Origin: Burkholderiales bacterium | GTDB lineage: Bacteria > Pseudomonadota > Gammaproteobacteria > Burkholderiales > SG8-41 | DNA: 61,731 bases | Assembly: GCA_035456985.1 (NCBI GenBank) | Contig: DATICE010000090.1 | Location: 1 to 61,731, forward strand | Direction: 5' to 3' | In this document: positions 4,809 to 55,710 of the stretch, one piece after another | How positions within the stretch are numbered: position 1 is the first letter of the stretch | Layout: each line of letters starts with the position of its first letter | The notes under the pieces: model-generated | Database searches by the model: none | What the model saw: the letters and a program-made list of their open reading frames with translations, nothing else | What the model was told of the DNA's origin: nothing | Program-made: the position numbers and the translations under genes

Positions 4809-5582
4809 TCAGGACTGGAGCGGCGCAGGCATCACGAACCACGTTGACCGCGCCAAGGCGCGGCATTCTCCCGATTCTGAAAAGAGCGCCGTGCCGGTGA
4901 AGTGACGGCGCTCGTCGCGGGCGAGCTCCCAGCCGACGACGATGTAGCGATCACCGACGGTCAGCGGCAGGCGCTGAGACGCCGCCATCTCGCCCAGCAG
5001 CACGGGCACCTTGTCCGGAAACTCGAACGAAAATGCGCCAGGGCAATCGAGCGCGGACCATATGAACTCGGTGCGCACGCGTCCCTTCCCGCCGCCGAGC
5101 GACGCGTCGGGGACCCACGTACAGGCGACGACACCATTGCGAAGCGGCCCGGCGAAGATGCGCAGCCCGTCGCCGGCCGCCCGCTCCGGGCCGCAAACAA
5201 AGCACCCCGGGAACGGATGGGAGCGAAACCCGCGGTACGACCGCGACGCAGCCTCCGCTTGCGCGAGGGTCGGCGCCGCGGGAATGTCGAGCGACATCAC
5301 AGCCGGCCGCGCCCGTGCGACGACGGTCGAGCCCTGGACCAGTTCGAGGCTCGATCCCGATTCCGTGACCTGCATATCGGCATCGAGCGGCGGCGGGCCC
5401 TCCAGCCGTACCAGCGAGGACCCGGATACGTAACGCGCGAGCCGGCCGCAGACATACCCCCCGTTGCCCGAATCAGGCGGGCCGCGGAAGCGCCGCTCGA
5501 TCCGGATCGTCCGGGGGAGGGTCCTGGATTCGGATGGCCTGTTGGTCACGGGCTGCCCATCATCGGTCACCGGCCGCGTCAT
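4809..5582 (-). CDS. Hypothetical protein (possibly a hotdog/thioesterase-like fold)
   Basis: 257-aa ORF with coding-like composition. It abuts the next gene with 0 nt between them. The functional call is weak. Confidence 0.65.
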   Translation of the reverse strand: MTRPVTDDGQPVTNRPSESRTLPRTIRIERRFRGPPDSGNGGYVCGRLARYVSGSSLVRLEGPPPLDADMQVTESGSSLELVQGSTVVARARPAVMSLDIPAAPTLAQAEAASRSYRGFRSHPFPGCFVCGPERAAGDGLRIFAGPLRNGVVACTWVPDASLGGGKGRVRTEFIWSALDCPGAFSFEFPDKVPVLLGEMAASQRLPLTVGDRYIVVGWELARDERRHFTGTALFSESGECRALARSTWFVMPAPLQS

Positions 5583-5846
5583 CTAATGTTTATGTTGTTG
5601 CTGTTCTGCGGTGAGCGCCGCAATCACGCGCTGGCGCTTGACCTCGATCTCCTTCGCGAAGCCGGGGTAGCGCTGCTCGACGAAGCCCGTGGCGAGCCCG
5701 ATCTTGAGCAGCGCAACGGCGAGACAGGCGGAAAGGTCGTCGAGCTCGGGGCTCTTCCGGGCAAGCTGCATCGCCTCGCACGTCTCGTCGCAGAGCTGCT
5801 GCAGCGCTTTGGCGGTTTCCTGGTCGAAGAGGGATTCCATGGTCAT
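5583..5846 (-). CDS. Small hypothetical protein
   Basis: 87-aa ORF directly upstream of 4809-5582 on the same strand. It looks helical and acidic. No family recognised. Confidence 0.5.
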   Translation of the reverse strand: MTMESLFDQETAKALQQLCDETCEAMQLARKSPELDDLSACLAVALLKIGLATGFVEQRYPGFAKEIEVKRQRVIAALTAEQQQHKH

Positions 5847-5971
5847 ACGTGTCGCAGCACCCGGGAATTTACCGCATTAGCGGGCTTGCTGGACCGATAT
5901 TCTAACCGGAGTCACGCGGTCCATTGCCCTGTGTCACAATCGCGCATCATTTATCCGGAGAGGGAGTGATC

Positions 5972-6748
5972 ATGGAGTGGGGACTGCGGGGGAAGGTCGT
6001 GGCCATTACCGGCGGCAGCGAAGGCATCGGGGGCGCGACCGCGATGCGTTTCGGACAGGAGGGGGCGCGAGTGGCGATCTGCGCGCGGCGCGCCGACGTC
6101 ATGGAGAGCGCAGCCGAGGCAATCCGCAAGGCGACGGGAGCGGAGGTCATGACGGTGGTGGCGGACGCCGCGCAGGCGGAGGACATGCCGCGCTTCATCG
6201 AGGAGACGGTCCGGCGCTATGGGCGCATCGACGCGGTCGTGAACAATGCCGGCGGCACCGGGCAGCGCCCGTTCGACGTGGTGGACGACAAGGCCTGGCA
6301 GAACGACATCGACATCAAGGTGTTTGCGCAGATCCGCAGCGCGCGCGCCGCGATCCCTCACATGAAAAAGCAGGGCGGGGGCCGCATCATCAATCTCAAC
6401 ATGGTCGGCGCCAAGCAGCCGTTCGCGGGATCGTTTCCGACCACGATTTCGCGCGCCGCGGGGCTCGCGCTCACCAAGGCGCTGTCGAAGGAGCTCGCGC
6501 CGTTCAACATCCTGGTGAACGCCGTCGCGGTGGGCAAGATCAAGTCGAAGCAGCAGGAGAGGAATGCCGCTCGCGAGAACGTGAGCGTCGCCGACTTCTA
6601 CGGGAAGGTCGGCAAGACGGTGCCGCTCGGACGGATGGGCGAGGCGGAGGAGGTCGCGAACGTCATCGCGTTCCTCGCGTCCGACGCCGCGAGCTATGTG
6701 ACCGGCTGCTGCATCAACGTCGACGGAGGGCTCTCCGGAGTCCTCTGA
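5972..6748 (+). CDS. SDR-fold oxidoreductase-like protein with an atypical active site
   Basis: TGGSEGIG cofactor motif and NNAG are present. GGAGAGGGAG lies upstream of ATG 5972. By eye the positions that normally carry Ser/Tyr/Lys read NLNM...TTISR instead of S...YxxxK. Confidence 0.88.
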   Translation: MEWGLRGKVVAITGGSEGIGGATAMRFGQEGARVAICARRADVMESAAEAIRKATGAEVMTVVADAAQAEDMPRFIEETVRRYGRIDAVVNNAGGTGQRPFDVVDDKAWQNDIDIKVFAQIRSARAAIPHMKKQGGGRIINLNMVGAKQPFAGSFPTTISRAAGLALTKALSKELAPFNILVNAVAVGKIKSKQQERNAARENVSVADFYGKVGKTVPLGRMGEAEEVANVIAFLASDAASYVTGCCINVDGGLSGVL

Positions 6749-6783
6749 GCCGCCGTCAGGCTCGCCTTCTAATCCTGGAGTCG

Positions 6784-7995
6784 CTAGGGCCGCAATTCGG
6801 AGGCGTGGATCATCCAGTTGCCCCCGGCGGGGCCCTGTGAGGTCGCAACGATGCCGGTGGCCGAGTTGCGATCGTGCGTGCACGCACCCACGCCGGTGCC
6901 GGTCACGCGCCGGCGGATCACGGGATTGCCCGCGCAGTCACGCTTGAGGGCCGGGGGATCGATCGAAGCGAGCTCGATCGCGACGCAGCCGTCTCCCACC
7001 GTCCCCACCTGGAAGCTCGTATCGATGTGCGCCGGCGTGATCAGCGCAACCGGTGTTCCGTCGGCGGCGAGCGAGACGTCGGGCTGAAGGATCGTGTCAT
7101 TCCCGAGCTGTGTCGCCAGCGCGTGGTCGGCCAGCTTGCCCGCATGTCGCCAGGTCCAGGTCGCCGGCGCGCCGGCCGGGTTGGTCGCGAATACCTGCAT
7201 GCTGGAGTTGACGTAGTCGGGGGTCACTCCGACGAAGGCCAGGCATTCGACGATGAGGTACAGGGTCTGGTTGCGCGTGAAGAGGGTGGGATTGTTGAGC
7301 ATGGCGCAATGCGGGACCGGCAGGCCGGCGAGCTGGTCGAGGTACGCCAACGGGCCGTATACCGGTGCCGTGTTCGTAACGCCTAGCACCGTCTCTGGCG
7401 CGCTGGCGAGGCCTGCCGGCGAATCTGCCGCGCCGATCCGCACGTGCCAGCTCGTCGCGTATTTCGGGTTGTACCCGGTCTGCGGCCGCAGAAAGTAGCG
7501 CAGGTGCGCGCCGTACCACGTGGTGCCTCCGGCCGAGGTGATGGTCGCGAGGGATGCCGTTTCCGAGCTGATCCGCCCGTTCTCGCCGCTGCCTTCGGGA
7601 TCCAGCATGGGCACGTCGTCCCACAGCGTGCCGACGAGCGTGAACGTCATGCCGCCATCGTCGCTGCGCGCGAGACGGTTTTCCGCTGCAGCCATCAGGA
7701 CCGGGTTGCCGTTGGTGTCCACGCCTGCGACGACGTGCGGCCAGGTATAGGCGAGCCAGACTCGTCCCGGTACGTCGGGATCACTCGCGAGGGACGGATC
7801 GGCAAAGCCCTTGAACGTGCCGGGATTATTGTGCGGCATGTCTCCCGCGATCTGAATCACGTTGCAACTGCCGGTCGCCGAGCAGTTCGCCTCGGCAACC
7901 GCGGGCGGCGCGCCGCACGACACGGTGTCGTCGCCACCGCCACCGCTGCAGGCGGTGACGAGCAGGCACAAAAGCACCGAAATGCGTGTCGCCAT
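6784..7995 (-). CDS. Lipoprotein with a BNR/Asp-box motif (sialidase-like beta-propeller?)
   Basis: MATRISVLLCLLVTACSGG is lipobox-like. SDDGGMTF matches the Asp-box pattern SxDxGxTW. 403 aa. Confidence 0.72.
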   Translation of the reverse strand: MATRISVLLCLLVTACSGGGGDDTVSCGAPPAVAEANCSATGSCNVIQIAGDMPHNNPGTFKGFADPSLASDPDVPGRVWLAYTWPHVVAGVDTNGNPVLMAAAENRLARSDDGGMTFTLVGTLWDDVPMLDPEGSGENGRISSETASLATITSAGGTTWYGAHLRYFLRPQTGYNPKYATSWHVRIGAADSPAGLASAPETVLGVTNTAPVYGPLAYLDQLAGLPVPHCAMLNNPTLFTRNQTLYLIVECLAFVGVTPDYVNSSMQVFATNPAGAPATWTWRHAGKLADHALATQLGNDTILQPDVSLAADGTPVALITPAHIDTSFQVGTVGDGCVAIELASIDPPALKRDCAGNPVIRRRVTGTGVGACTHDRNSATGIVATSQGPAGGNWMIHASELRP

Positions 7996-10229: not shown

Positions 10230-11186
10230 CTACAGACGCTCGAGGTGCTCCACCATGCGCCGGCGCATCTTCGCATCCGGCAGGCGGCCGATGCCCCCCT
10301 GGAGGTTATCTTTGAGGTGAGCGACGCGGCTCGTGCCCGGTATGGCGCAGGTGACGGCGGGATGCGAAAGGATGTACTTGAGGAAGAACTGCGCCCAGCT
10401 CCTGCAGTCGAATTCCGCCGACCACGCCGGCAGTTCCCTGCCACGCACCCTGGGAAAGAGCGCGCCCATCGAAAACGGGCGGTTGGCGATCACCGCGACG
10501 CCGGACTCGGCGCATGCCGGCAGCAGCCGTGCCTCGGCTTCGCGCTCGGCCATCGAGTAGTTGAACTGTACGAAGTCCCACTCGCGCGAGCGCACCAGCC
10601 GCTCGAGATCGCCATACGCGCCCGCATGGTAGTGCGTGATGCCGAGGTAGCGGATGCGCCCTGCGTCCTTCCATTCGAGCAGGGTCTTCGCATGGACGGC
10701 GACGTCCTGGAGGTTGTGGACCTGCATGAGGTCCATCCTCCGCGTTCGCATCAGCTTGAGCGAGCTTTCCATCTGGCGGATGCCGGCGTCGCGCCCGCGG
10801 GTCCAGACCTTGGTCGCGAAGAACAGCTTTTCGCGCAGCCGCAGCTCCGCGGAAAGATCGCCCACCACCCGCTCGGCTTCTCCATACATGGGCGAGGAAT
10901 CCACGACAGAACCGCCGCCGTCGACGAGGAGGCGCAGCACTTCCTTCAGCTCGCCGCGCTCGGGCGAATCCGGACCGACGTCGAAGGTCTGCCAGGTGCC
11001 GACTCCGACCGCGGGCAGCAACTCCCCCGTGCGCGGTATCGGCCGCTTCAGGAGTGTGGAGGATTGCGCGATGGCCTTCTTCTTGTTCATGGCGGTGAGG
11101 GCGGCGCCGGCCGCGGCGAACTGCAGCAGCCTGCGCCGTATGGGGTTCAGAAGTTTGAGGTCAGTCTTAGCATGAACACGAGTCAC
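10230..11186 (-). CDS. Aldo/keto reductase with a Tat-type signal (paralog A)
   Basis: The N-terminus RRRLLQFAAAGAALTA precedes an AKR core (GVGTWQTF...SSPMYGEAE...MQVHN...YLGITHY...VQFNYS). The start is GTG 11186. Confidence 0.86.
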   Translation of the reverse strand: MTRVHAKTDLKLLNPIRRRLLQFAAAGAALTAMNKKKAIAQSSTLLKRPIPRTGELLPAVGVGTWQTFDVGPDSPERGELKEVLRLLVDGGGSVVDSSPMYGEAERVVGDLSAELRLREKLFFATKVWTRGRDAGIRQMESSLKLMRTRRMDLMQVHNLQDVAVHAKTLLEWKDAGRIRYLGITHYHAGAYGDLERLVRSREWDFVQFNYSMAEREAEARLLPACAESGVAVIANRPFSMGALFPRVRGRELPAWSAEFDCRSWAQFFLKYILSHPAVTCAIPGTSRVAHLKDNLQGGIGRLPDAKMRRRMVEHLERL

Positions 11187-11258: not shown

Positions 11259-11594
11259 ATGCTCAATCCCGACGGCCTCGCAGTTTTCTCCAAGCATGCC
11301 TGCCCGACGTGCACACTGATCGAGCCGGTGATGCAGCGCGTCGCGAAGGCGGTCCCCGCGTTCCAGGTAGTCTCGCAGGACGACCCGAAGTTCCCGTCCG
11401 GCGTCGCCAACCTGGTGGACGACCGCGAGCTCGACCAGTCCTGGGTCAACAATATCGAGGCGACACCCACCCTGATCCGCTTCCAGGGCGGGCGCGAGGT
11501 CGAGCGGGTCGTCGGCTGGGACCGCGATGGCTGGCGCCGGTTGACCGGCATCCGCGACCTGGGAGAGGGCCTGCCGGCGTTCCGCCCGGGGTGA
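11259..11594 (+). CDS. Thioredoxin-fold protein (CPTC motif)
   Basis: 111 aa. AVFSKHACPTCTLIEP carries a CxxC motif, and a downstream IEATPTLIRF matches the position of the cis-Pro loop. Confidence 0.8.
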   Translation: MLNPDGLAVFSKHACPTCTLIEPVMQRVAKAVPAFQVVSQDDPKFPSGVANLVDDRELDQSWVNNIEATPTLIRFQGGREVERVVGWDRDGWRRLTGIRDLGEGLPAFRPG

Positions 11595-11618
11595 GGCTCG
11601 CTCTCACTCGAGCCCGGG

Positions 11619-12701
11619 GTGGCCGAGAAACTGGAAGCGAAACACAGCGGCAAGACGCTGCTCGCCGCGCGCAAGATCGAATATCCCGATAGCGCTGACC
11701 CGGTCGAGGTGTGCTTCGAGCGCGGCTGGACCGACGGGCTGCCGGTGACGCCGCCCACCGACGAGCGCGTGATCGCCATGCTGAAGGGCACGACGCGCCG
11801 CCCCGACGAGGTGATCGGCAGGATTCCCCCGTTTCTCGCTCCCTGCACGGTCGAAAAGGTCGCGGTGAACGCCGTGATGGCGGGATGCAAGCCGGAATAC
11901 ATGCCCGTGCTGCTCGCGGCGCTGGAGGCGGCACTGGAGCCGGTCTTCACGCTGCACGGGGTGCTCGCGACCACTTATTTCTCGAGCCCGATCGTCATCG
12001 TGAACGGCCCGATCGCCCGCAGGATCGGCATGAACAGCGGCATCAACGCGCTCGGGCAGGGGAATCGCGCGAACGCGACGATCGGCCGGGCGCTCAACCT
12101 CATTGTGCTCAACGTCGGCGGCGGCCGGCCGGGCGAGGCGGACCGCTCGACGCTGGGCGCGCCAAGCAAATACACGCTGTGCTTCGCCGAGGACGAGTCC
12201 GATCCGCAGTGGGAGCCGCTGTCGGTCGCACGCGGCTTCGCGCGCGGTGTTTCCACCGTGACGCTGTTCCAGGGTCACGGCCCGGAGGCGTTCGTGGACC
12301 AGAAGTCGCGCACGCCGGAGGGGCTGACGCGCTCCTTCGCGCTGTCGCTCAACAGGATGGGACACGCCAACCTGGTGCAGTCGGCGCGCGCGATCGTGGT
12401 GCTCTCGCCCGAGCACTACGCGATCTACAAAGAAGCCGGCTGGGATCGCAAGAGGATTGAGCGGGCGTTATACGAAGCGACGATTCGCCCCGGGAAGGAG
12501 ATACTTGCCGGCAAGGACGGCGTGGGTGAGGGCGTGCCGCCGGAGCGTGCAAACGAAATGGTCCCGAAATTCCACGACGACGGGCTCATGGTCGTCCGCG
12601 CTGGCGGACCGGCGGGGTTGTTCTCGGCGATCCTTCCCGGCTGGCTCGCCGGCCGCAATAAACTGGAGCTGCAACCCGTAACGAAGGAGGTCAAGGCATG
12701 A
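11619..12701 (+). CDS. Conserved hypothetical protein (360 aa), partner of the selenoprotein
   Basis: GTG start. The ORF has strong GC3 bias. Its stop overlaps the ATG of the next gene (ATGA). No family recognised. Confidence 0.8.
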   Translation: MAEKLEAKHSGKTLLAARKIEYPDSADPVEVCFERGWTDGLPVTPPTDERVIAMLKGTTRRPDEVIGRIPPFLAPCTVEKVAVNAVMAGCKPEYMPVLLAALEAALEPVFTLHGVLATTYFSSPIVIVNGPIARRIGMNSGINALGQGNRANATIGRALNLIVLNVGGGRPGEADRSTLGAPSKYTLCFAEDESDPQWEPLSVARGFARGVSTVTLFQGHGPEAFVDQKSRTPEGLTRSFALSLNRMGHANLVQSARAIVVLSPEHYAIYKEAGWDRKRIERALYEATIRPGKEILAGKDGVGEGVPPERANEMVPKFHDDGLMVVRAGGPAGLFSAILPGWLAGRNKLELQPVTKEVKA

Positions 12702-13219
12702 TGAACTGGATGCGAGATCCCACTGCGGAAACTTCGGCCGTGAAGCGGCCGCGGCGCGCGCCGCCGAAATCGCTCGAGGGGCTGACCATCGGGCTCTTCG
12801 ATATCGGCAAGACGCGCACGCCCGAATTCCTCGACCAGGTGGAGAAGCGCTTCAACGAGCGCGGGCTGAAGACGAAGCGCGTCGGCAAGCCCACCAACGC
12901 CAAGGTCGCGACGCCCGAAAACCTGCAGAAGATCGCCTCGGAGGTGGACGTCGTCCTGATCGGGCTATCCGACTGAGGGTCGTGCACGTCGTGCAGTCTG
13001 CACGACCTCATGAACTTCGACGGCCGCGGCATCCCCGGCGTCTCGGTCGTCACACTCGGCTTCACCGACGCGGTGGCGGTGCAGTCGAAGGCGCTCGGCT
13101 TCGAGCCGGCGGTGCTCTACGTCCCGCACCCCATTCAGAACCGCACTGCGGACGAGCTGAAGAAGATCGCCGACGACGTGGTCGAGCCTGCGCTGAGGAT
13201 GCTTACGGCATCCAAGTGA
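12698..13219 (+). CDS. UGSC-type selenoprotein, 173 aa, with in-frame UGA (Sec) at 12974-12976
   Basis: Track ORFs 12698-12976 and 13010-13219 share one frame, and the 33 nt between them are open. Read-through gives VDVVLIGLSD-U-GSCTSCSLHDLMNFDGRG. A hairpin follows the UGA. The second half has no sensible independent start context. Confidence 0.8.
12978..13007 (+). promoter_or_regulatory. SECIS-like recoding hairpin downstream of the Sec UGA
   Basis: GTCGTGCA occurs twice (12979-86, 12988-95) and is followed by its complement TGCACGAC (12999-13006). One fold is a 7-bp stem at 12988-94/13000-06 with loop AGUCU. The alternative is a 9-bp stem at 12978-86/12999-13007. The apical loop lies about 20 nt 3' of the UGA. 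Confidence 0.6.
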
Positions 13220-13243
13220 CGACTGACGGCTGACGAGTGGTCA
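13216..13243. repeat. Heptad repeat (G/C)TGACG(A/G) x3 plus a degenerate unit, filling the convergent spacer
   Basis: The sequence reads gtgacga ctgacgg ctgacga gtggtca. TGA triplets at 13217, 13224 and 13231 fall in all three frames. The first is the selenoprotein stop, and TCA at 13241-43 is the AKR stop. Confidence 0.8.
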
Positions 13244-14221
13244 GCCCAGGGAATCGATAAACTCGACCATCTTCCTGCGCTGCGCAGCGTCGGGCAGCCG
13301 GCCGCGCGCGGCGCTCAGGTTGTCCACCACGTACTCCGGCTTGTCCATGCCGGGTATCACGCAGGTCACCGCCTCGCTCGCGAGGAGGTACTTGAGAAAG
13401 AACTGGCCCCACGTCGACGCGTCGAACTCCGCGGCCCACGCCGGCACCGGCTTGCCGCGCACGGCGCGGAACAGGCGGGCGCGGGCAAAGGGCAGGTTCA
13501 CGAGGACGGCGGTACCGGTTGCGGTGGCCGCCGGCAGCAGCCGTTCTTCCACGCTGCGCTCGGCCATCGAGTAGTTGACCTGGATGAAATCGAGCTTCTC
13601 GGTCCGCATGATCTCGATCAGCCGGTCGTTGGCGCGCGCCTGGCTCTGGGAGTGCGTCACACCGATGTAGCGGAACACGCCGCGCTCCTTCCACTCGCGC
13701 AGCAGCGAGAGCTGCGCGGCGATCTCGCCGCGGTCCACGAAGCCGACGTTGTGGATCTGCATGAGATCGAATTTCTGGGTGCGCAACCGGCGCTGCGATT
13801 CGTGCATCTCGGCGATCGCCCGGTCGCGGGTAGTGGCGCGCACCTTCGTCGCCACGAACGTCTTGTCGCGGACTTTCAGGTCGGCGAGCAGGTCGCCGAG
13901 CACCGATTCCGCAGCGCCGTAGGACGGCGCGGTGTCGATCAAGCGCGCGCCGCCGGCGAGCAGGGTCTCGATGACCGTGCGTCGCTCGGCGATCCGCGGC
14001 GCGTCCCCGGCGATGTCGAAAATTATGGCGGTGCCGAGGCCGACTACCGCGAGTTGCTCGCCAGTGCGCGGAATGGGGCGAGTGAGCAGTGGTTTCGCGG
14101 CTGCGGTGGCCGCGCCGGCGGGCGCGATTCCGAGCGCGGCGGCCGCGCCGAGGCCGGCGGTCATCACCAGCGCTTCGCGACGCGTGAACAGGCGGGGGGC
14201 GGGCTTGGCACGGTCCTTCAT
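13241..14221 (-). CDS. Aldo/keto reductase with a Tat-type signal (paralog B)
   Basis: FTRREALVMTAGLGAAAALGIAPAGAA precedes an AKR core that is collinear with 10230-11186 (roughly 40-50 percent identical by eye). Confidence 0.86.
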   Translation of the reverse strand: MKDRAKPAPRLFTRREALVMTAGLGAAAALGIAPAGAATAAAKPLLTRPIPRTGEQLAVVGLGTAIIFDIAGDAPRIAERRTVIETLLAGGARLIDTAPSYGAAESVLGDLLADLKVRDKTFVATKVRATTRDRAIAEMHESQRRLRTQKFDLMQIHNVGFVDRGEIAAQLSLLREWKERGVFRYIGVTHSQSQARANDRLIEIMRTEKLDFIQVNYSMAERSVEERLLPAATATGTAVLVNLPFARARLFRAVRGKPVPAWAAEFDASTWGQFFLKYLLASEAVTCVIPGMDKPEYVVDNLSAARGRLPDAAQRRKMVEFIDSLG

Positions 14222-16682: not shown

Positions 16683-16767
16683 ATGCACTCGGCGGCCGGG
16701 ACCGACGAACGCACAAGCGGTGCGTTCGACTGTAGAATCCGGATATAACGAGAAGAGGAGGGGAAAC

Positions 16768-17733
16768 ATGAGGACATTCGGTCTCGCGCTGTCGCTGCTC
16801 GCCGCGCTGCTGCCGCAGGCAGCAGCGGCGCAGGAAACATACCCGTCGCGTGCCGTCACGATCATCGTGCCGTTCCCGCCCGGCGGTATTGCCGACATCA
16901 CCTCGCGCACGCTGGCCCCGGGGCTGGAGCGCGCGCTCAGGCAGCCGATCGTGATCCAGAACCGGCCGGGCGCGGCCGGAACCACCGGAGCGCACGCCGC
17001 CGCCACCGCGGCGCCGGACGGATACACGCTGTTGTGCCACCTGGTCAGCATCTCGTCGCTGCCCGAGGTGGACAAGCTCTTCGGGCGCCCAACGGTATTC
17101 ACCCGCGATCAGTTCGTCGGCATCGCGCGCATCAACGCCGATCCCCCGATCATGGTCGTGCATCCCTCGGTGCCGGCAAGGAACCTGAAGGAGTTCGTCG
17201 CGCTCGCGAAAAAGCGCCCCAAGGACATGATCTTCTCCTCGTCGGGACCGTATGGGGCATCCCACGTGCCCTTCGCGATGTTCCTGCAAGCGGCGGGGCT
17301 TCAAATGCGCCACCTGCCGACGACCGGAGGGGCGCCGGCGATGACCGCGGTGCTCGGAGGCCACGCGGTGACCTGGGCCTCGCCCCCGGCGATCGCGCTG
17401 CCGCACCTGAAGGCGGGCAAGATCAAGGCGTTCGTGACGTGGGGCGCCAATCGCCTTCCGGAGTTCCCCGAGATTCCTACGTTCCGCGAGCAGGGCTACG
17501 ACATCGAGTATTACCTGTGGGCCGGGTTGTTCGCGCAGCGCAAGGTTCCTCCCAATGTGTTCAGCTCGTTGCGCGAGGCGGTCCGTAAGGCGGTCCAGGA
17601 CCCGGACGTGAGGAAAGGTTTCGAGAAGGTGCGCACGCCGATCGCGTACCAGGACGCCGACGAATTCAAGGCGTGGTGGGACAAGGACGCGGAGCGTGTC
17701 GCGAGGGCCGTGTACAGCATCGGCAAGCAATAG
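16768..17733 (+). CDS. Bug/TctC-family tripartite tricarboxylate transporter substrate-binding protein
   Basis: GAGGAGGGG lies upstream of ATG 16768. A signal peptide is followed by the YPSRAVTIIVPFPPGG hallmark. Confidence 0.92.
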   Translation: MRTFGLALSLLAALLPQAAAAQETYPSRAVTIIVPFPPGGIADITSRTLAPGLERALRQPIVIQNRPGAAGTTGAHAAATAAPDGYTLLCHLVSISSLPEVDKLFGRPTVFTRDQFVGIARINADPPIMVVHPSVPARNLKEFVALAKKRPKDMIFSSSGPYGASHVPFAMFLQAAGLQMRHLPTTGGAPAMTAVLGGHAVTWASPPAIALPHLKAGKIKAFVTWGANRLPEFPEIPTFREQGYDIEYYLWAGLFAQRKVPPNVFSSLREAVRKAVQDPDVRKGFEKVRTPIAYQDADEFKAWWDKDAERVARAVYSIGKQ

Positions 17734-17764
17734 GCGAAGTGACAACAAGACAGGAGGAAATCCC

Positions 17765-18742
17765 ATGAACACCCGCATATTCAGCGTTCTTCTGCTGGCG
17801 CTTCTCGCCGGCGCAGCGGCGGCACAGGATTCGTATCCGAGCCGCCCGGTCACCATGATCGTGCCGTTTCCACCCGGGGGCGTGGCCGACCTCACCGGCC
17901 GGCCCATTGCCGCCGCGATGGAAAAGGTGCTGAAGCAGCCGATCGCGCCGGTCAACCGCGCGGGCGCCGGCGGAAAGGTCGGCTATGCGGCCGCGGCCAA
18001 CTCCAAGCCCGACGGCTACACCATGTTGATTGCGCTCTCCAGCGTCTCGATCTTCCCGGAGGTGGACCACCTGTTCAACCTCAAGCCGGCCTATACGCTG
18101 GACCAGCTCGTGCCGATCGCGCTGATCTCCGCCGACCCGACCATACTCGTGGTGCATCCATCGCTGCCGGCCAGGTCGGCAAAGGAGTTCATCGCGCTCG
18201 CGAAAAAGAACCCCAACGAGATTGCGTTCTCCTCGTCCGGCCTGTACGGCACGTTGCACATCGCGATGGAGATGGTGGTCCAATCTGCCGGCATCAAACT
18301 GCGGCACGTGCCGTTCTCCGGAGGTGGGCCCGCGGTCAGCGCGCTGCTTGGCGGACACGTGTTCGCGCTCTCCTCGGGACCCGCGGCGGCGATCGGCCAC
18401 CTGCGGGCGGGCAAGCTCCGCGCGCTCGCCAGCTGGGGCGACAAGCGGCTCGCCGCGTTGCCGCAGCTGCCGACGTGGAAGGAGCTCGGCTACAAGAACG
18501 TCGAGTTCTACATCTGGGCCGGGTTGATGGTGCCGAGCGGCACGCCGGAGGCGGCGATCAAGGCGCTGCGCGCCGCCGCGGCCAAAGGTGTCCAGGACTC
18601 GGGTTTCAAGGCGGTGATGGCCAAGCTCGAAACGCCCGTCAACTACCTCGATGCGCCCGAGTTCCGCAGTTTCTGGGACCGCGACGCCGAGCGTCTCGTG
18701 CGCACGGTACGGCGCGTGGGCAAGGTCGACGCCAAGAAATAG
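17765..18742 (+). CDS. tctC: Bug/TctC-family substrate-binding protein (adjacent to tctBA)
   Basis: AGGAGGA lies upstream of ATG 17765. A signal peptide is followed by YPSRPVTMIVPFPPGG. Confidence 0.92.
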   Translation: MNTRIFSVLLLALLAGAAAAQDSYPSRPVTMIVPFPPGGVADLTGRPIAAAMEKVLKQPIAPVNRAGAGGKVGYAAAANSKPDGYTMLIALSSVSIFPEVDHLFNLKPAYTLDQLVPIALISADPTILVVHPSLPARSAKEFIALAKKNPNEIAFSSSGLYGTLHIAMEMVVQSAGIKLRHVPFSGGGPAVSALLGGHVFALSSGPAAAIGHLRAGKLRALASWGDKRLAALPQLPTWKELGYKNVEFYIWAGLMVPSGTPEAAIKALRAAAAKGVQDSGFKAVMAKLETPVNYLDAPEFRSFWDRDAERLVRTVRRVGKVDAKK

Positions 18743-18994
18743 CGCGTCGAGGGGCGAAACAGCGATCGGCGGAACATGGAGCAGGGGCCCCGTTTACGGG
18801 GATGCGACCGTGCAGCCGATCAATGGCGCGTCGTTCAAGTGCCGATCCTGCGCGCGTCTCCGGGGTCAGACCCCAGAGGGTCCCTCTTCCGCCCGTCGAC
18901 GCGCCCCATTCATGGAGATGTGATCCCCGGTGACGCGCAGGGCGGCCGATACCATGTGTCCGATTATTTGCGATGACATGTCAGAGGCCGCGGG

Positions 18995-19498
18995 ATGGCG
19001 ACCGGTGGCCGGAAGGAAGTGGTGAGCGATCCGGAAGCAGAGCAGAAGCGCGGCGGTCTGAAGAGCGACCAGTTCTCCGGGCTGATGCTCGTCGCGCTTG
19101 CTCTCTACGTGGGGTGGGAGAACCGGGTATATCCGGTCGGGACCCTCCAGGAGCCCGGGCCCGGCTACATGCCGCTTCTCCTCGTGATCTTTCTCGGCGC
19201 GATGGGGCTGCTGATCGCGCTGTGGGGCGCGCGGTCGAAGCCGCTCGCCGCGATGCAATGGCCGGAGGCCACCCGCGCGGTCGTGATACTCGTCGCGTGC
19301 GGATTCGCCGCGTTCGCGCTGGAGCGGATCGGCTACCGGCTCACCGTGATCGCGCTCCTCGTCTTCCTCCTCGGCGTGCTCGAGCGCAAGCGGCCGGTGC
19401 CGGTGGCCCTGGTGGCGCTCGGCTTCAGCTTTGCCTCGTTCTACGTGGTGGGCGACCTGCTGCACGTGCCGCTTCCCCGGAGCCCCTGGGGCTTCTAA
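18995..19498 (+). CDS. tctB: TctB-family small membrane subunit
   Basis: 167 aa with 4 hydrophobic segments, positioned between tctC and tctA. The start is uncertain. Confidence 0.78.
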   Translation: MATGGRKEVVSDPEAEQKRGGLKSDQFSGLMLVALALYVGWENRVYPVGTLQEPGPGYMPLLLVIFLGAMGLLIALWGARSKPLAAMQWPEATRAVVILVACGFAAFALERIGYRLTVIALLVFLLGVLERKRPVPVALVALGFSFASFYVVGDLLHVPLPRSPWGF

Positions 19499-19522
19499 CC
19501 GGCGTCGGCCGCCACCGAATTA

Positions 19523-21040
19523 ATGGTTGAAACTTTCAACGATCTCCTGCTGGGCTTTTCGGTCGCACTACAGCCCTCGATCCTGGTCTATGCGTTCGTA
19601 GGCTGCGTGATCGGTACGCTGGTCGGCATGATGCCGGGCCTCGGGCCTCTCGCCGGCATCAGCCTGCTGCTGCCCGCGACGTTCGGACTGAATCCGATCA
19701 TCGCCATCGTGCTGCTCGCCGGCGTCTATTACGGCGCGATGTATGGCGGCTCCACGACCTCGATCCTGATGCGGATTCCCGGCGAGGCCGCCTCGGTGAT
19801 GACCTGCATCGACGGCTACGCGATGACGCAGAACGGCCGCGCCGGTCCGGCGCTCGCCATCGCCGCGATCGGCTCGTTCATTGCCGGGACGCTCGGCGTG
19901 ATCGGGCTCATGCTGCTCGCGCCCACTCTTGCAGCGTTTGCGCTGCGCTTCGGGCCGCCGGAGTATACGGCGCTGCTGTTGATGGGGCTGTTCATACTTG
20001 CCTACATGAGCGGCGGCTCGATGCTGAAGACGCTCGCCATGGCGGGGCTTGGCCTGCTGATCGGCATGATCGGCATCGACATCATGAGCGGCTACACGCG
20101 CTTCAGCTTTAACATCGTGGAACTCGGAGACGGCGTCGGCATCGTGCCGGTGGCGGTGGGGCTTTTCGGCGTATCCGAAATACTTTTGACGGCAGGCGGG
20201 GCAACGGCGCCCGACGTGCAGCGGCCGAAGCTGCGTGACCTGATTCCCTCGCGCGAGGAGTTTCGCCTCTCGGCGGGGCCGATCGCGCGCGGGAGCCTGC
20301 TCGGGTTCCTGATCGGCATCATTCCGGGTTCTGCGCACATCATCTCCTCCTTCGTGTCCTACGGCATCGAGCGCCGGATATCGAAGCATCCGGAGCGCTT
20401 CGGCAACGGCGCGATCGAGGGCGTGGCGGGACCCGAGTCCGCGAACAACGCCGCGGCGAGCGGCGCGTTCGTGCCGATGCTCGCGCTCGGAATCCCGACG
20501 AGCCCCGTCACCGCGGTGATGATCGCGGCCATCATGGTGCACGGCGTGCTGCCGGGCCCGATGCTGATCCAGCAGCAGCCGGAGCTGTTCTGGGGGTTCG
20601 TGGCGAGCATGTACGTGGGCAATGTGGTGCTGCTTATCCTGAACCTGCCGATGGTCGGGTTGTTCGTCAACCTGCTGCGCATCCCCTACAGCTATCTCTA
20701 CCCGTGCATCCTGTGCTTCTGCATCCTCGGCACCTATTCCGTGGCCAACAACCTGATCGACGTGTGGATCCTGCTCGCGATGGGCGCGATCGGCTACGTG
20801 TTGCGCAAGTTCCGTTACGATCTCGCGCCCGTGGCGCTGGGTCTGGTGCTGGCCCCGATGATCGAACTGTCGCTGCGGCAGTCGCTCGCGATGAGCGCGG
20901 GCGACTACGGCATCTTCCTCGAGCGCCCCATCGCCACCACGATGCTGGTGCTCGGGCTGATCATGTTCCTGTTCGCCCTCAAGCCGCTCGTCTTCAAGGG
21001 CAAGGACTGGCGGTCGACCGTAGGCCTCGAAAACGAGTGA
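19523..21040 (+). CDS. tctA: TctA-family large permease
   Basis: 505-aa polytopic protein with typical TctA N-terminal sequence (GCVIGTLVGMMPGLGP...YYGAMYGGSTTSIL). Confidence 0.93.
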   Translation: MVETFNDLLLGFSVALQPSILVYAFVGCVIGTLVGMMPGLGPLAGISLLLPATFGLNPIIAIVLLAGVYYGAMYGGSTTSILMRIPGEAASVMTCIDGYAMTQNGRAGPALAIAAIGSFIAGTLGVIGLMLLAPTLAAFALRFGPPEYTALLLMGLFILAYMSGGSMLKTLAMAGLGLLIGMIGIDIMSGYTRFSFNIVELGDGVGIVPVAVGLFGVSEILLTAGGATAPDVQRPKLRDLIPSREEFRLSAGPIARGSLLGFLIGIIPGSAHIISSFVSYGIERRISKHPERFGNGAIEGVAGPESANNAAASGAFVPMLALGIPTSPVTAVMIAAIMVHGVLPGPMLIQQQPELFWGFVASMYVGNVVLLILNLPMVGLFVNLLRIPYSYLYPCILCFCILGTYSVANNLIDVWILLAMGAIGYVLRKFRYDLAPVALGLVLAPMIELSLRQSLAMSAGDYGIFLERPIATTMLVLGLIMFLFALKPLVFKGKDWRSTVGLENE

Positions 21041-21229
21041 CCTGCGGCTGACGGCCGCTGACCGGTCGCGCGGCGGGCCGTCTCTGCCGCAAGACGGGAA
21101 CTCAGGAGAATCAAGTCGCAACGGCTTGTCCGTCGTCACGGGGCGACACATTCCGGAATTCTTGTCCCGGACTGTGAGCTCTTTCAGTCACCGGTCCCGC
21201 GGTTCCAAAGTTGTTGTAGCATTCGCGCC

Positions 21230-22078
21230 ATGAAATACCTGGCTCGGCCGGCATTGGGCATACTGGCGCTCTGCGCGGCGGTTGCCCTTGCGAGCGACGT
21301 CAAGGACGGCGGGCCATACGTGCCCACGCCCCAGGCCGTGGTGGACGCCATGCTCGAGATCGCCAAAGTCGGGCCGGGTGATTTTGTCGTCGACCTCGGT
21401 TCGGGCGACGGGCGCATCGTGCTGACGGGGGCGACACGCCGCAAGGCGAGTGGCATGGGCGTGGACATCGACGGCGAGCTGGTCGACCTCGCCAACACCT
21501 CGGCGCAGCGCCTCGGCGTCGCGGACCGCGTGCGGTTCCTCCGGCAGGACGTGCTCGAGGCCGATCTCAGCCGTGCGACCGTGCTCACGCTCTACCTGCT
21601 GCCGAACATGATGGAGCGGTTGCGGCCGAAGCTCCTGAAGGAGCTCAAGCCGGGCGCGCGCATCGTGTCACACGATTTCGATCTCGGCGAATGGAGGCCG
21701 GACCGCAGCGTGGACGTGCAGACTTCGGAAAAATACGACATCTCGGGCAGCTGGACCTCCACCGTGTACCTGTGGACGGTGCCCGCCGCCGTGGAAGGCG
21801 CCTGGGTCGGCAACGTGGACGGTGCGCGTGGCGCGGCCTTCCGGCTGGAGATCAAGCAGCGCTACCAGCAGCTCGAAGGCCGCCTGGTGCGCGACGCCAG
21901 GGCGATGACAGTGCGCGATGCGCGGATCGACGGCACGCGCATCCGCTTCAGCGCGCCGGGGGCGGACGGGCGGCTCGAAACCTATACCGGCACCGTCCAG
22001 GACGGGAGAATCACCGGCGAAGCGCGTTCCGGGGCCGGATCGACGACAGTGCGCTGGAGCGCCACCCGCGTTCCTTGA
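21230..22078 (+). CDS. Signal-peptide-bearing class I SAM-methyltransferase-fold protein, array paralog 1
   Basis: The N-terminus MKYLARPALGILALCAAVALA has an AxA site. It is followed by PYVPTPQAVVDAMLEIAKV, motif I VVDLGSGDGRIV, GVDID, LTLYLLP and VSHDF. The conserved C-terminal domain has WTVPAAVEGAW...EIKQRYQQLEG...F.G.V.DG.I.G...W.A.R. Confidence 0.88.
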   Translation: MKYLARPALGILALCAAVALASDVKDGGPYVPTPQAVVDAMLEIAKVGPGDFVVDLGSGDGRIVLTGATRRKASGMGVDIDGELVDLANTSAQRLGVADRVRFLRQDVLEADLSRATVLTLYLLPNMMERLRPKLLKELKPGARIVSHDFDLGEWRPDRSVDVQTSEKYDISGSWTSTVYLWTVPAAVEGAWVGNVDGARGAAFRLEIKQRYQQLEGRLVRDARAMTVRDARIDGTRIRFSAPGADGRLETYTGTVQDGRITGEARSGAGSTTVRWSATRVP

Positions 22079-22092
22079 AAGGCTGAAATTCC

Positions 22093-22968
22093 ATGGAAAC
22101 TCATCGTCACTTGACGCGCCGCCGCCTGCTGATCGCGCTCGGCGCACTCCCCCTTGCGCAGTACGCCACGGCCGCCGACATCGAGCTCGCCCGCACCGGC
22201 GGGCCGTACGTACCCACCCCGCAGATCGTGGTGGACGAGATGCTGCGCATGGCGAAGGTCGGCGCGGACGATTTCGTGGTCGACCTCGGCTCGGGTGACG
22301 GGATCATCGTGCTGACGGCGGCAACGCGCCTCAAGGCGCGGGGACTCGGAGTGGATATCGATCCCGAGCTCGTCCAGTTTTCGAACAGCGAGGCAAGGAA
22401 ACGCGGTGTGGCCGATCGCGCGAGCTTCCGCGTGATGGACGTGTTCAAGGCCGACATCAGCAAGGCGTCGGTGGTGACGCTCTACCTGCTGCCCGGGATG
22501 ATGACGGATCTGCGGCCGAAGATCTTCGGCGAGCTGAAGCCCGGCACGCGGGTCGTGTCGCACGACTATAGCTTCGGAGACGAGTGGCGCCCCGACGACC
22601 AGTACACCTGGGACGTTCCCGAGAAAGAAAAGGTGAACGGCGTCCCGCGGGCGACCATTTACCTCTGGATTATCCCCGCACAGGTCGCCGGCCGCTGGCA
22701 GCTCAACCTCGCCGCGCCCGTCGCGGAGCGTTACGACCTTGCTATCAAGCAGCGTTACCAGAGCCTTGAAGGCGTGGTCAGCGGCAGCGGAGCCAAAGGT
22801 GTCCGGCTCACGCAGTCGCATCTTCAGGGGGAAACCATCTCGTTCGCGTTCCCGGCAGGGGGCGACCGCCACCGCTTCAAGGGGCGCGTCTCGGGCAACA
22901 CCATGGAAGGCACGGTCGAGCTCGCCGGCGGCAAGGGCGCGGCGAAGTGGACCGCCACCCGCCTCTAG
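22093..22968 (+). CDS. Array paralog 2 (Tat-like signal)
   Basis: The N-terminus HLTRRRLLIALGALPLAQYATAA is Tat-like. It has the same methyltransferase core (VVDLGSGDGIIV) and C-terminal domain (WIIPAQVAGRWQL...AIKQRYQSLEG...FKGRVSGNTMEG). Confidence 0.88.
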   Translation: METHRHLTRRRLLIALGALPLAQYATAADIELARTGGPYVPTPQIVVDEMLRMAKVGADDFVVDLGSGDGIIVLTAATRLKARGLGVDIDPELVQFSNSEARKRGVADRASFRVMDVFKADISKASVVTLYLLPGMMTDLRPKIFGELKPGTRVVSHDYSFGDEWRPDDQYTWDVPEKEKVNGVPRATIYLWIIPAQVAGRWQLNLAAPVAERYDLAIKQRYQSLEGVVSGSGAKGVRLTQSHLQGETISFAFPAGGDRHRFKGRVSGNTMEGTVELAGGKGAAKWTATRL

Positions 22969-25842: not shown

Positions 25843-25923
25843 GTCGATCGCTTGAGTCGGGTATAATCCGGGCCTTTCCGGAATCGCCGGTTCCACCGGC
25901 ATCAGATCGGAATTTAACCACAG

Positions 25924-26838
25924 ATGCCGCTCCCGCCGCGCTGGCACAAGGTCCCGGCCGCCGCCCGCTTCGCAATTCACGTGACGACGCTGGCGGCGCT
26001 CTCGCTGTCGCCGGCACGCGCTCTCGAACCCAGGGTGCCGTACGTTCCGACGCCGCAGGAAGTGGTGGAGCGTATGCTGGAAATCGCCAAGGTCGGCCCG
26101 CACGACTATCTGATCGACCTGGGCTCCGGAGACGGTCGCATCGTGGTCACCGCGGCGAGGAAATACGGGACGCGCGGCTTCGGCGTGGACTTGAATCCCG
26201 AGCGCATCCGGGAGAGCACGGAAAACGCGCGGCGGGCGGGCGTCAGCGACAAGGTTGCCTTCTACCAGCGCGACCTGTTCGAGACCAACCTCGCCGACGC
26301 CACGGTCATCACCATGTACCTGCTGCCCCAGGTCAACATCGAGTTGCGGCCGAGACTGCTCGAGTTGAAGCCCGGCACGCGCCTCGTCTCCCACGATTTC
26401 GATATGGACGACTGGAAGCCGGACACCCATATCAAGATCGACGCACAGGACAAGTACGGCGGCGCCGGCGGGCAAAGCGACATCTACTTCTGGATCGTGC
26501 CGGCCCGCGTTGCCGGGGTGTGGCGGTGGGAGCTGCCGGTCTCGGGCAAGCCGCTCGACTACGAGGTAACGCTGCAGCAGAGATACCAGGTGTTCACGGG
26601 GTCGGCCGCGGTCGGCGGCCGCTCGGCCAAGCTGCAGAACGCGCGCCTGCGGGGCGACACGATCCGGTTCTCGTTCACAGTGGAAGTGAACGGCGCGCCG
26701 GTAAAGCACGAGTTCAGCGGCAGGGTCGCGGGCGAAACCGTCACCGGCTCGGCGCGTTTGTCGGGCGCCCGCCTGCAGGGGCAGCACGAATGGAGCGCGC
26801 GGCGCATCGCGCCGGCGCCGCTCACCGCGCTCCACTGA
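25924..26838 (+). CDS. Array paralog 3
   Basis: The hydrophobic N-terminus ends in ARA. It is followed by VPYVPTPQEVVERMLEIAKV, LIDLGSGDGRIV, GVDLNP, ITMYLLP and VSHDF. The C-terminal domain has FWIVPARVAGVWRW...TLQQRYQVFTG...FSGRVAGETVTG...WSARR. Confidence 0.88.
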   Translation: MPLPPRWHKVPAAARFAIHVTTLAALSLSPARALEPRVPYVPTPQEVVERMLEIAKVGPHDYLIDLGSGDGRIVVTAARKYGTRGFGVDLNPERIRESTENARRAGVSDKVAFYQRDLFETNLADATVITMYLLPQVNIELRPRLLELKPGTRLVSHDFDMDDWKPDTHIKIDAQDKYGGAGGQSDIYFWIVPARVAGVWRWELPVSGKPLDYEVTLQQRYQVFTGSAAVGGRSAKLQNARLRGDTIRFSFTVEVNGAPVKHEFSGRVAGETVTGSARLSGARLQGQHEWSARRIAPAPLTALH

Positions 26839-29440: not shown

Positions 29441-29581
29441 TTGCCTCGCAAGCCGGCCGGGCGGCCGCTGCGCCTGGAGAGCGGCAGGATGCGTGGCGAC
29501 GAGATTCGTCTTATGCTCACGGCGAAGGTCGAGGGCCGGGCGCTGCGCCAGGAGTTCCACGGGCGCGTGGAATCTGTAACT
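29441..29581 (+). pseudogene. Relic of an eighth paralog (C-terminal-domain fragment only)
   Basis: The translation AGRPLRLESGRMRGDEIRLMLTAKVEGRALRQEFHGRVES aligns without gaps to paralog 3 GGRSAKLQNARLRGDTIRFSFTVEVNGAPVKHEFSGRVAG at about 50 percent identity. It has no methyltransferase domain, and only a TTG codon lies at its 5' end. Confidence 0.65.
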
Positions 29582-29597
29582 TGTATCCGGAAAAGGA

Positions 29598-30530
29598 ATG
29601 GACATGAACAGGGCGGCAGGTTGGATGAGGATTCTTGCGGTTTCGGCCGCGCTGTTCGCGCCGGCGGCCGCGGCGCAGGAGGGACGCGGCGACGTGATCT
29701 ACGTGCCGACGCCCCAGGTGGTGGTCGACGCAATGCTGCGGATGGCGAAAGTCGGCGCCAAGGATTTCCTGATCGACCTCGGCTCCGGCGACGGGCGCAT
29801 CGTCATCACCGCGGCGAAAAAGCACGGCGCGCGCGGCTTCGGAGTGGACCTCGACACCTACCTCCTGAAGATGGCCAATGCCAACGCGAGAAGGGAAGGC
29901 GTGGCCGACCGCGCGCGCTTCATCGAGCAGAATCTGTTCGAGACCGATCTCTCCCAGGCCAGCGTGATCACGAGTTACCTCCTGCCCGGCATGAACGAGC
30001 AGCTGCGCCCGAAGCTCCTCGCGCTGAAGCCCGGCACGCGCCTGGTGGCGCACGATTACGCGATGGGGGAGTGGGACCCGGATGATTCGGAAACGCTGAT
30101 CGTGCCGGAGAAGACGGTGGGTGATCCCGGCAAGAGCTACATTTTCTTCTGGATCGTGCCGGCCCGCGTCGCCGGCCGCTGGGAGTCGCAGATCATGGCC
30201 GCCGGCAAGCCCGAGTCGTGGCAGTTCAACTTCCAGCAGAATTTCCAGCTGGTGCATGGCACTGCGCTGGCAGGCAAGCGGGAGGTGAAGGTGCCGCAGT
30301 TCCGGATGGCGGGCGAGCAGCTCGCGTTCAAGGTCGAAGTCCCGGGGGCCGGCAAGCCCGTCACCTACCAGTTCCGGGGCTGGGCGAAAGGCGATGTGAT
30401 CGAGGGCAATGTGGTCGCGGGCGGGGACTCCGGCCAGCGGGTGATGCCGTGGCGGGCGACGCTGAGAGCGCGGGGCGAGCCCTACATGGGCGCAGCCGGC
30501 GCCATCGCCGTCGCAGGCGCCAACCGATGA
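29598..30530 (+). CDS. Array paralog 7
   Basis: The N-terminus is MDMNRAAGWMRILAVSAALFAPAAAA. The core has LIDLGSGDGRIV. The C-terminal domain has FWIVPARVAGRWES...NFQQNFQLVHG...FRGWAKGDVIEG...WRATLR. The start could also be 29604 or 29625. Confidence 0.86.
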   Translation: MDMNRAAGWMRILAVSAALFAPAAAAQEGRGDVIYVPTPQVVVDAMLRMAKVGAKDFLIDLGSGDGRIVITAAKKHGARGFGVDLDTYLLKMANANARREGVADRARFIEQNLFETDLSQASVITSYLLPGMNEQLRPKLLALKPGTRLVAHDYAMGEWDPDDSETLIVPEKTVGDPGKSYIFFWIVPARVAGRWESQIMAAGKPESWQFNFQQNFQLVHGTALAGKREVKVPQFRMAGEQLAFKVEVPGAGKPVTYQFRGWAKGDVIEGNVVAGGDSGQRVMPWRATLRARGEPYMGAAGAIAVAGANR

Positions 30531-55555: not shown

Positions 55556-55710
55556 CTCCTCGTGATCTTGCAGTCGGCTCCTGCGAGCGTTCCCATCGAG
55601 CGACGCGCAAGCGCCGGAGCCATTTAAGTCGCCGGATTATAGCAGCCGGATTCCCACGGCCCGCGCTACAATCCGCCATCGGCATTGCGCGACGGAATCG
55701 GGACTACCAC

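Follow-up and report, generated by a model that had tools for sequence, protein, structure and literature searches.

We analysed a stretch of 61,731 nucleotides (nt) from a Burkholderiales bacterium (contig DATICE010000090.1; the whole stretch is called the window below), in which two overlapping genes on the forward strand are each interrupted by an in-frame UGA codon that is probably read as selenocysteine (Sec). The downstream gene, at 12698-13219, encodes a protein of the UGSC family. It has 173 codons including Sec-93 and ends at its own stop codon, TGA 13217-13219. Its in-frame UGA occupies 12974-12976 and opens the motif U-G-S-C-T-S-C, where U93 is followed by the cysteines (Cys) C96 (12983-12985) and C99 (12992-12994). 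The upstream gene, which we call the partner, lies at 11259-12701 and has 480 codons if its own UGA is read through; it encodes a thioredoxin-like domain, a linker with Sec or Cys at position 112, and a domain of 360 amino acids (aa) that belongs to no known family. The two genes overlap in an ATGA at 12698-12701, with the UGSC start codon (ATG, 12698-12700) lying over the partner stop codon (TGA, 12699-12701), which suggests translational coupling. A Shine-Dalgarno-like sequence read from the DNA (GAAGGAGG, 12683-12690) stands 7 nt ahead of the UGSC ATG.

The TGA at 12974-12976 is the sole stop between two open reading frames (ORFs) in the same frame, 12698-12976 and 13010-13219. Read-through gives ...VVLIGLSD-U-GSCTSCSLHDLM... 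or, in a longer form, ...ASEVDVVLIGLSD-U-GSCTSCSLHDLMNFDGR... An earlier note, made from the letters of the DNA, had proposed that these ORFs are one UGA-recoded gene that standard ORF calling splits. The gene is indeed listed as two ORFs, and both the frame and a profile match along its full length agree with this proposal. For profile searches we put Cys in place of the TGA-encoded Sec. The product scores 129.8 bits (cutoff 25; E=1.5e-37) with the Pfam model PF24696, 'UGSC family', from position 3 to position 171 of 172, and 119.4 bits (E=1.2e-34) with the NCBIfam model NF041046, 'UGSC family (seleno)protein', from position 2 to position 146 of 147. The latter is the family label that the note had named.

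A database search with the UGSC product returned 477 relatives. The best full-length matches are single ORFs of 171-198 aa with 50-59% identity, and several full-length relatives carry the name 'UGSC family (seleno)protein'. Homologs with Cys in place of Sec, which the note had named as a check, were found: the U column holds Cys in 22 of 22 aligned full-length homologs, in the invariant context LSD-C-GSCTSCS. The corresponding motif in the window is LSD-U-GSCTSC, and in 70 of the 76 UGSC genes of neighbouring loci a stop codon at the U column is followed by GSCTSC.

The family itself has been catalogued for some time. A 'UGSC-containing protein' was noted by Zhang and Gladyshev in 2007 (PMC1976440). 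In the Global Ocean Sampling data, where 255 of its sequences carry Sec and 21 carry Cys, UGSC ranks among the most abundant selenoprotein families, and in several non-marine metagenome samples it is the top one; the paper on these data also refers to a 'UGSC/Unknown_1 fusion' (PMC2398784). A 2016 count placed the family in 26 sequenced organisms (PMC5029168), and a 2026 review still gives it as uncharacterised (PMC13188914). The window gene shares with this family the full-length profile match, U-G-S-C at the conserved column, the Cys homologs and a hairpin right after the UGA, and nothing essential differs. By its sequence it is a new member of a selenoprotein family known since 2007-2008.

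Comparison across loci carries the case for recoding. We retrieved 80 genome and 80 metagenome loci through the neighbouring partner gene. At the U column of UGSC, 74 of 76 genome loci and 65 of 69 metagenome loci have TGA and the remainder have Cys, which makes 139 TGA and 6 Cys codons among 145 UGSC genes. The protein segments before and after the TGA are both conserved, in lineages that include Proteobacteria, Gemmatimonadota, Chloroflexota, Actinomycetota, Nitrospirota and Myxococcota. UGA is not reassigned globally, as both genes of the pair and several of their neighbours end at UGA. A shared reading frame is weak evidence by itself. As a control, we examined the 244 stops in the window that have at least 50 open codons on each side. 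Seven have coding-like GC content at the third and second codon positions (GC3/GC2) on both sides, and five of these seven are ordinary junctions of unrelated genes. The case therefore rests on homology and on the comparative data. Two other stops considered as recoded codons were rejected as ordinary junctions: TGA 58209 (+) separates an amidase gene from a hydrolase gene, and TGA 52980 (-) separates a gamma-glutamyltranspeptidase gene from an OsmC gene.

A hairpin that probably serves as a selenocysteine insertion sequence (SECIS) follows the UGSC UGA directly. The sequence GTCGTGCA is present twice, at 12979-12986 and 12988-12995, and its complement TGCACGAC follows at 12999-13006. The core hairpin at 12988-13006 starts 11 nt past the UGA codon and spans 19 nt (+15 to +33), pairing 12988-12995 with 12999-13006 in a stem of 8 base pairs (bp; GUCGUGCA/UGCACGAC) closed by the loop GUC (12996-12998). 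Its predicted free energy is -12.0 kcal/mol (z=-3.5), and a 46-nt version reaches -21 kcal/mol, with 0 of 200 shuffles as stable. Published criteria for bacterial SECIS elements (bSECIS) call for a stem of 4-16 bp, a loop of 3-9 nt with G followed by G or U, a distance of 16-37 nt from the UGA, and a minimum free energy of -7.5 kcal/mol or lower. The hairpin falls within all four limits. The earlier note had expected an apical loop about 20 nt downstream, and the distance from UGA to loop is 19 nt. As in the fdhF-type SECIS of E. coli and the bSECIS model (PMC13188914), this is a coding-region stem-loop right after the UGA, with an 8-bp stem and a 3-nt loop beginning G-U. In contrast to fdhF, its sequence is unrelated and we identified no bulged U.

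The pairing is conserved among Sec forms. Across 72 distinct TGA-form sequences, 94.1% of the cells are paired, against 5.6-52% when the pairing partners are slid by one to three columns, and no shuffle matched the observed pairing or covariation score. Wherever position 18 is A, position 30 is U (5/5), and C21:G27 is replaced by U:A in three sequences. In the distant Sec form from Acidovorax this pair is swapped to G:C and 8 of 8 pairs are retained. For Ser, the 5' arm uses TCG (68 sequences) or TCA (5), whereas TCC and AGC are absent, and every loop codon is NGT, so that G23 and U24 are invariant. In eight Cys-form UGSC genes with a near-identical peptide only 4-6 of the 8 pairs can form, whereas Sec forms have a mean of 7.5, and the local free energy is 0 to -6.3 kcal/mol in these Cys forms compared with a mean of -10.5 kcal/mol in 75 Sec forms. 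Since the hairpin lies inside the catalytic motif, the SECIS dictates protein sequence.

In most Sec forms, the NUG codon that closes the stem puts Leu, Val or Met behind SC(S/C/G) (12995-13000 in the window); the five Cys forms nearest to the window gene have Thr at this place, and Cys forms use other codons just before it. The earlier note had proposed two hairpins from the repeated GTCGTGCA. The repeat and the stem made by its second copy (94% paired) hold up, and the stem made by the first copy does not: pairing of 12978-12986 with 12999-13007 is only 74% complete, a value reached by 425 of 500 shuffles, and we rejected it as not conserved.

Several observations weigh against reading UGA-93 as Sec. 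The NF041046 score of 119.4 is slightly below the equivalog cutoff of 125. The UGSC hairpin has few true compensatory changes, as the encoded peptide T-S-C-S-x-H-D hardly varies and leaves little room for them. No selA, selB, selC (tRNA-Sec) or selD was found in the 62-kb window by tRNA search, Rfam search and annotation of the ORFs examined. The genome is thus only presumed to be competent for Sec, and the evidence on the pair is computational throughout. The same searches of the window returned no tRNA and no Rfam family of any kind. Two adjacent ORFs of 466 and 594 aa (36247-33068) resemble selA and selB by size; they encode an ABC-transporter binding protein and permease.

This absence of Sec machinery within the window, the splitting of the gene by standard ORF calling and the occurrence of chance same-frame neighbours in the window would all agree with TGA 12974 being a genuine stop, either between two short unrelated ORFs or in a decayed pseudogene, with an incidental hairpin beside it. 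However, of 145 homologous genes from many phyla, 139 keep the TGA at this exact column between conserved flanks, Cys substitutes for it in other homologs, and the hairpin is conserved in TGA forms only. Moreover, the second half has neither a ribosome-binding site of its own nor a conserved start. A genuine stop is extremely improbable on these grounds, and the comparative data effectively refute it. We therefore favour the reading that 12698-13219 is one UGSC selenoprotein gene, second in a conserved two-gene module, whose UGA-93 is decoded as Sec with the aid of an mRNA hairpin, and we give it a probability of roughly 85%.

The partner gene contains a second in-frame TGA, at 11592-11594, which is the only codon parting a thioredoxin-like ORF from a 360-aa ORF in the same frame (...GLPAFRPG-TGA-GSLSLEPGVAEK...). 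The earlier note had missed both this codon and the partnership of the two genes. The thioredoxin-like domain carries, in translation, the redox motif CPTC (C15 and C18, 11301-11312), and C-P/E-T-C is present in all full-length homologs. A search with the partner read-through product gave more than 8000 relatives, of which many are single ORFs of 476-495 aa that cover 99-100% of the query, some of them named 'thioredoxin family protein'. The closest relatives, at 86-91% identity, are called as fragments of 359-361 aa. At the TGA column, candidate U112 in the motif RPG-U-GS, Cys is invariant: RPG-C-GS is found in each of the 16 full-length homologs aligned. Across all loci the codon in this linker column is TGC in 77 cases, TGT in 21 and TGA in 17. 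In TGA-form partners that have a downstream UGSC gene, this gene is also in its TGA form in 12 of 12 cases.

A candidate SECIS for this second UGA lies at 11607-11627, starting 12 nt past the UGA codon. It pairs CUCG-(A)-GCC with GGC-CGAG around the loop CGGGGU and thus has 7 bp and a bulge, with a predicted energy of -9.6 kcal/mol and a spacing of 20 nt, formally within the SECIS limits given above. Selection on the codons gives it stronger support than the fold does. In a set of eight TGA-form partners the third codon position varies in 0 of 7 hairpin codons, whereas it varies in 56 of the 58 codons around them (Fisher p=5e-8). By comparison, 31 Cys-form partners with the same x-E-P-G-x-x-E peptide have 30 distinct nucleotide sequences at the hairpin segment. 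When genome and metagenome loci are combined, 16 of 17 distinct TGA-form partners agree in every one of the 21 nt that make up the hairpin. The lone variant is on metagenome contig Ga0209640_10021065 (L090), where the segment reads CTTTCGCCCGGGGTGGCGGAG (peptide L-S-P-G-V-A-E) within the 48 nt after the partner TGA. Four substitutions there rebuild a similarly stable hairpin (-9.5 kcal/mol) in a shifted register.

The reading of UGA-112 as Sec faces objections of its own. The 17 TGA forms are limited to the clade of the window, Betaproteobacteria/Burkholderiales of groundwater and soil, and the hairpin is not thermodynamically exceptional for GC-rich sequence (z=-1.1, and z=+0.2 for its 49-nt context). 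In addition, the conserved E-P-G-x-A-E peptide by itself partly encodes the hairpin arms. The restriction to one clade and the ordinary stability of the hairpin could also be expected if TGA 11592 were a real stop and the gene were split, with a thioredoxin of 111 aa ending there and translation beginning anew at GTG 11619 to make the 360-aa protein. Gene callers begin the 360-aa protein at this GTG, and separate trxA and domain genes do exist in Arthrobacter. Against such a split, the stop falls exactly on the invariant Cys codon, one base change (TGC to TGA) away from it. The reading frame is kept across the eight codons from the TGA to the GTG, which vary mostly at third positions, and the GTG is merely the conserved Val codon of E-P-G-V-A-E in all forms, with no Shine-Dalgarno sequence before it. 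The hairpin is frozen at its wobble positions, and TGA-form partners occur only where the downstream UGSC gene is in its Sec form too. A split partner gene is thus quite improbable. That the partner UGA-112 is a second Sec codon is, from these comparisons, highly probable, and the locus most likely encodes two selenoproteins.

We found no mention of the partner as a selenoprotein, or of an operon of UGSC and partner, in the searchable literature, a limited set in which the 2026 review with its section on operons was included. The partner lacks a profile model, and its Sec forms stand as truncated fragments in databases. The 360-aa domain of the window ORF has no Pfam or NCBIfam match, and 20 partner homologs have no Pfam match in this domain at E<=1. 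With the second UGA, current annotation splits two genes at this locus, not one.

In 77 of 81 sequences examined, the partner is immediately followed on its own strand by a UGSC gene, and the two usually share the ATGA overlap. Two of the four exceptions run off a contig edge. The other two are the only exceptions away from contig ends. In L003, a TGA-form partner (position 4331) is followed by a 450-aa ORF (5534-6886) in place of a UGSC gene, and in L023 a Cys-form partner has no detectable UGSC gene. When the search started from Cys-form UGSC genes, the partner was again found directly upstream with the same 4-nt overlap (L081, L082 and L083).

Other arrangements occur in more distant lineages. 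A plasmid of Arthrobacter sp. ERGS1:01 (NZ_CP012477.1; L084 2630-5804) carries trxB, trxA, the partner domain (hhalign E=2e-47) and UGSC in this order on the same strand; this UGSC is a Cys form of 271 aa with a C-terminal extension. The haloarchaeon Natrinema has UGSC followed by the partner domain (hhalign E=2e-57). In Acidovorax sp. T1, a cultured isolate, the conjugative IncP plasmid p2-T1 (NZ_CP021650.1; L085 4977-7475) carries an in-frame fusion of a Sec-form UGSC domain with the partner domain (E=7e-51). The motif of the fused UGSC domain is GSGD-U-GSCTSWS. The 3' end of this fused gene enters IS91/Y2-type transposase sequence, and the gene is annotated only as a 97-aa hypothetical protein. 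Judged from gene order, fusion and sequence similarity, UGSC and the partner are a conserved two-protein module of Bacteria and Archaea.

Genes for the Sec machinery adjoin the pair in 12 loci from diverse lineages, mostly directly downstream. These are selA (TIGR00474, 560 bits) and/or selB (TIGR00475, 362 bits), found in L042 (5991-9400), L045 (5991-9400), L019, L028, L029, L034, L039, L043, L050, L053, L061 and L075. A tRNA-Sec with anticodon UCA follows in L042 and L045. This adjacency suggests that in those genomes the Sec machinery has UGSC as a principal client. It would also be explained if the pair acted in selenium handling, that is in delivery, recycling or storage for the Sec pathway. 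However, a main or sole selenoprotein would be expected to have its gene at such a place: genes of the Sec machinery often stand beside the gene of a client selenoprotein, such as formate dehydrogenase. In addition, Cys forms of both proteins are found in organisms such as haloarchaea and Arthrobacter in which nothing points to the use of Sec, and selD was not seen adjacent to the pair. A role in selenium handling is very unlikely in view of these points.

The predicted structure of UGSC (predicted local distance difference test, pLDDT, 87.4; predicted template modelling score, pTM, 0.82) is a parallel alpha/beta fold, with Sec-93 between a strand (85-91) and a helix (95-109). The earlier note had anticipated a beta-strand followed by a redox motif at a helix start, and the model, with its pLDDT of 87, has this arrangement. 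Its neighbours in the PDB are flavodoxins, flavodoxin-like domains of flavodiiron proteins, TIR domains and DJ-1 domains (TM-score about 0.45), and no thioredoxins are among them. A search of the PDB by sequence returned nothing at E<=1 for UGSC and thioredoxins only for the partner. The literature on UGSC gives its function as unknown and its structure as a 'likely Trx-like fold', and mentions no partner gene. Our results differ from this picture in that the model is flavodoxin-like, so that the thioredoxin-like fold is not supported by structure prediction, and in that a conserved partner gene is evident.

In the partner model, which is of moderate confidence (pLDDT 77), residues 1-110 form a thioredoxin fold (pLDDT about 90) that matches thioredoxins in the PDB. 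The linker bearing U112 is Gly-rich and modelled with low confidence, and it is probably flexible. A fold search with the partner model gave no PDB match at E<0.001 for the C-terminal domain. The only Cys residues of this domain conserved from Betaproteobacteria to Arthrobacter and Natrinema are C210 (in AGCKP) and C308. Flexible Sec-bearing redox arms are known from GrdA (CxxU) and from the C-terminal GCUG of mammalian thioredoxin reductase. By analogy, a Sec or Cys at position 112, in a linker that follows a CxxC thioredoxin domain, would suit an electron relay. In contrast to these arms, there is no sequence homology, and the partner linker is internal rather than C-terminal.

The only families related to UGSC by sequence are subunits of the GrdB type. 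The earlier note had pointed to a likeness of the UxxCxxC spacing to these selenoproteins; the motif is documented for GrdB (PMC13188914), and profile matches, weak as they are, add to the likeness. Among 23 UGSC members, 19 match GrdB, 16 match GrdF, 5 match GrdH and 7 match the general selenoprotein-B model. The matches always span the C-terminal ~90 residues, which bear the Sec in those enzymes. UGSC shares with GrdB, GrdF, GrdH and PrdB (TIGR01917, TIGR01918) the UxxCxxC motif (U93-G-S-C96-T-S-C99) and a weak but reproducible C-terminal similarity. A thioredoxin system is also common to both, in that trxB and trxA lie in the Arthrobacter operon and a thioredoxin is fused to the partner in the window. 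UGSC differs in its length (173 aa against ~430 aa, or ~240 aa for PrdB) and in its hosts, which are mostly aerobic aquatic and soil bacteria rather than Stickland fermenters.

We tentatively propose, at somewhat below even odds, that the pair is a thioredoxin-driven two-subunit reductase, as co-occurrence, fusion and weak homology would suggest. Electrons would pass from NADPH through thioredoxin reductase (TrxB) to the CPTC of the fused thioredoxin domain, then to the Sec or Cys at position 112 of the linker, acting as a swinging redox arm, and then to the U93-x-x-C96-x-x-C99 centre of UGSC. UGSC would then reduce a small substrate, probably one with a carboxylate group, that is bound to the 360-aa domain with its conserved C210 and C308, and would take the role that the Sec-bearing C-terminal domain of GrdB or PrdB has in Stickland reductases. 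GntR/FCD regulators and TctC or other carboxylate transporters recur near the pair, which hints at a small organic acid as the substrate. At similar odds, UGSC may be the catalytic selenol subunit of an unrecognised two-component reductase that is very widespread in Bacteria and Archaea, draws on a fused or co-encoded thioredoxin system and is distantly related to the 'protein B' of Stickland reductases. Its other subunit would be the domain that has no known family or fold, in a partner that turned selenoprotein in one betaproteobacterial clade.

Part of the evidence speaks against this proposal. The similarity to GrdB is weak, at 18-24 bits where the cutoffs are 65-800, and aligns UGSC residues 77-170 with profile positions 331-425. 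As these scores lie far below the family cutoffs, UGSC is not a member and at most shares a related domain. The partner domain has no similarity to the GrdB, GrdE or PrdA models, and neither a pyruvoyl-type partner (GrdE/PrdA) nor GrdA, GrdC or GrdD was found among the neighbours. The gene context is variable beyond the pair, with no general conserved third gene. The most frequent neighbours are selA/selB, in the 12 loci listed above, followed by aldo-keto reductase, CoA-transferase, short-chain dehydrogenase/reductase and TctC genes in 4-8 loci each. We separately considered whether partner and UGSC are a split GrdB, or the partner a proprotein of the GrdE/PrdA type, and rejected both, as profiles gave no support among 20 homologs at E<=1.

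The variable neighbourhoods, which point to no single pathway, would also fit a pair that is a general antioxidant or thiol-disulfide oxidoreductase, such as a peroxidase or disulfide reductase, with no dedicated substrate. Reviews place UGSC with thioredoxin-, peroxiredoxin- and glutaredoxin-like redox proteins, and a thioredoxin domain is fused to the partner, several of whose Cys residues are conserved. However, the UGSC model has a flavodoxin-like rather than a thioredoxin fold, and the sole detectable relatives of UGSC are subunits of substrate-specific reductases of the GrdB type. The large conserved 360-aa domain has many invariant polar residues and suggests a specific active site, and carboxylate transporters and GntR/FCD regulators recur nearby. 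Such a general role is unlikely, if by no means negligible.

If the two-subunit reductase proposal and the second Sec codon are correct, the locus would represent a new selenoprotein family and a new operon of two selenoproteins. UGSC is abundant in ocean and freshwater metagenomes and is uncharacterised after nearly twenty years, and the window gene alone leaves this unchanged. The partner, the thioredoxin supply and the link to GrdB turn an 'unknown redox protein' into a testable hypothesis. What is added here is a second candidate Sec codon, a conserved module, a corrected fold and this hypothesis of function.

Further features of the neighbourhood were observed. In the window, a set of TctC, TctC, TctB and TctA genes lies about 3.5 kb downstream of the pair (16720-21040, +). 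TctC adjoins UGSC in L082, L083 and L013 and is near it in L085. Two paralogous aldo-keto reductase genes flank the pair on the opposite strand (10230-11186 and 13241-14221, both -), and a similar aldo-keto reductase gene is found upstream in about six related loci. The 21-nt gap between the convergent UGSC and aldo-keto reductase genes is the site of an inverted repeat, GGCTGAC-GAGTG-GTCAGCC (13228-13246), which has no T-run after it and may be a bidirectional terminator. Four paralog-like ORFs with methyltransferase domains (Methyltransf_25/31) occur within 10 kb on the forward strand, at 21062-22078, 22087-22968, 25918-26838 and 29580-30530. A short distance separates two gamma-glutamyltranspeptidase homologs encoded on opposite strands (52983-54200, -, and 55444-57432, +), and the first of these is followed in the same frame, past an ordinary TGA stop, by an OsmC-like gene.

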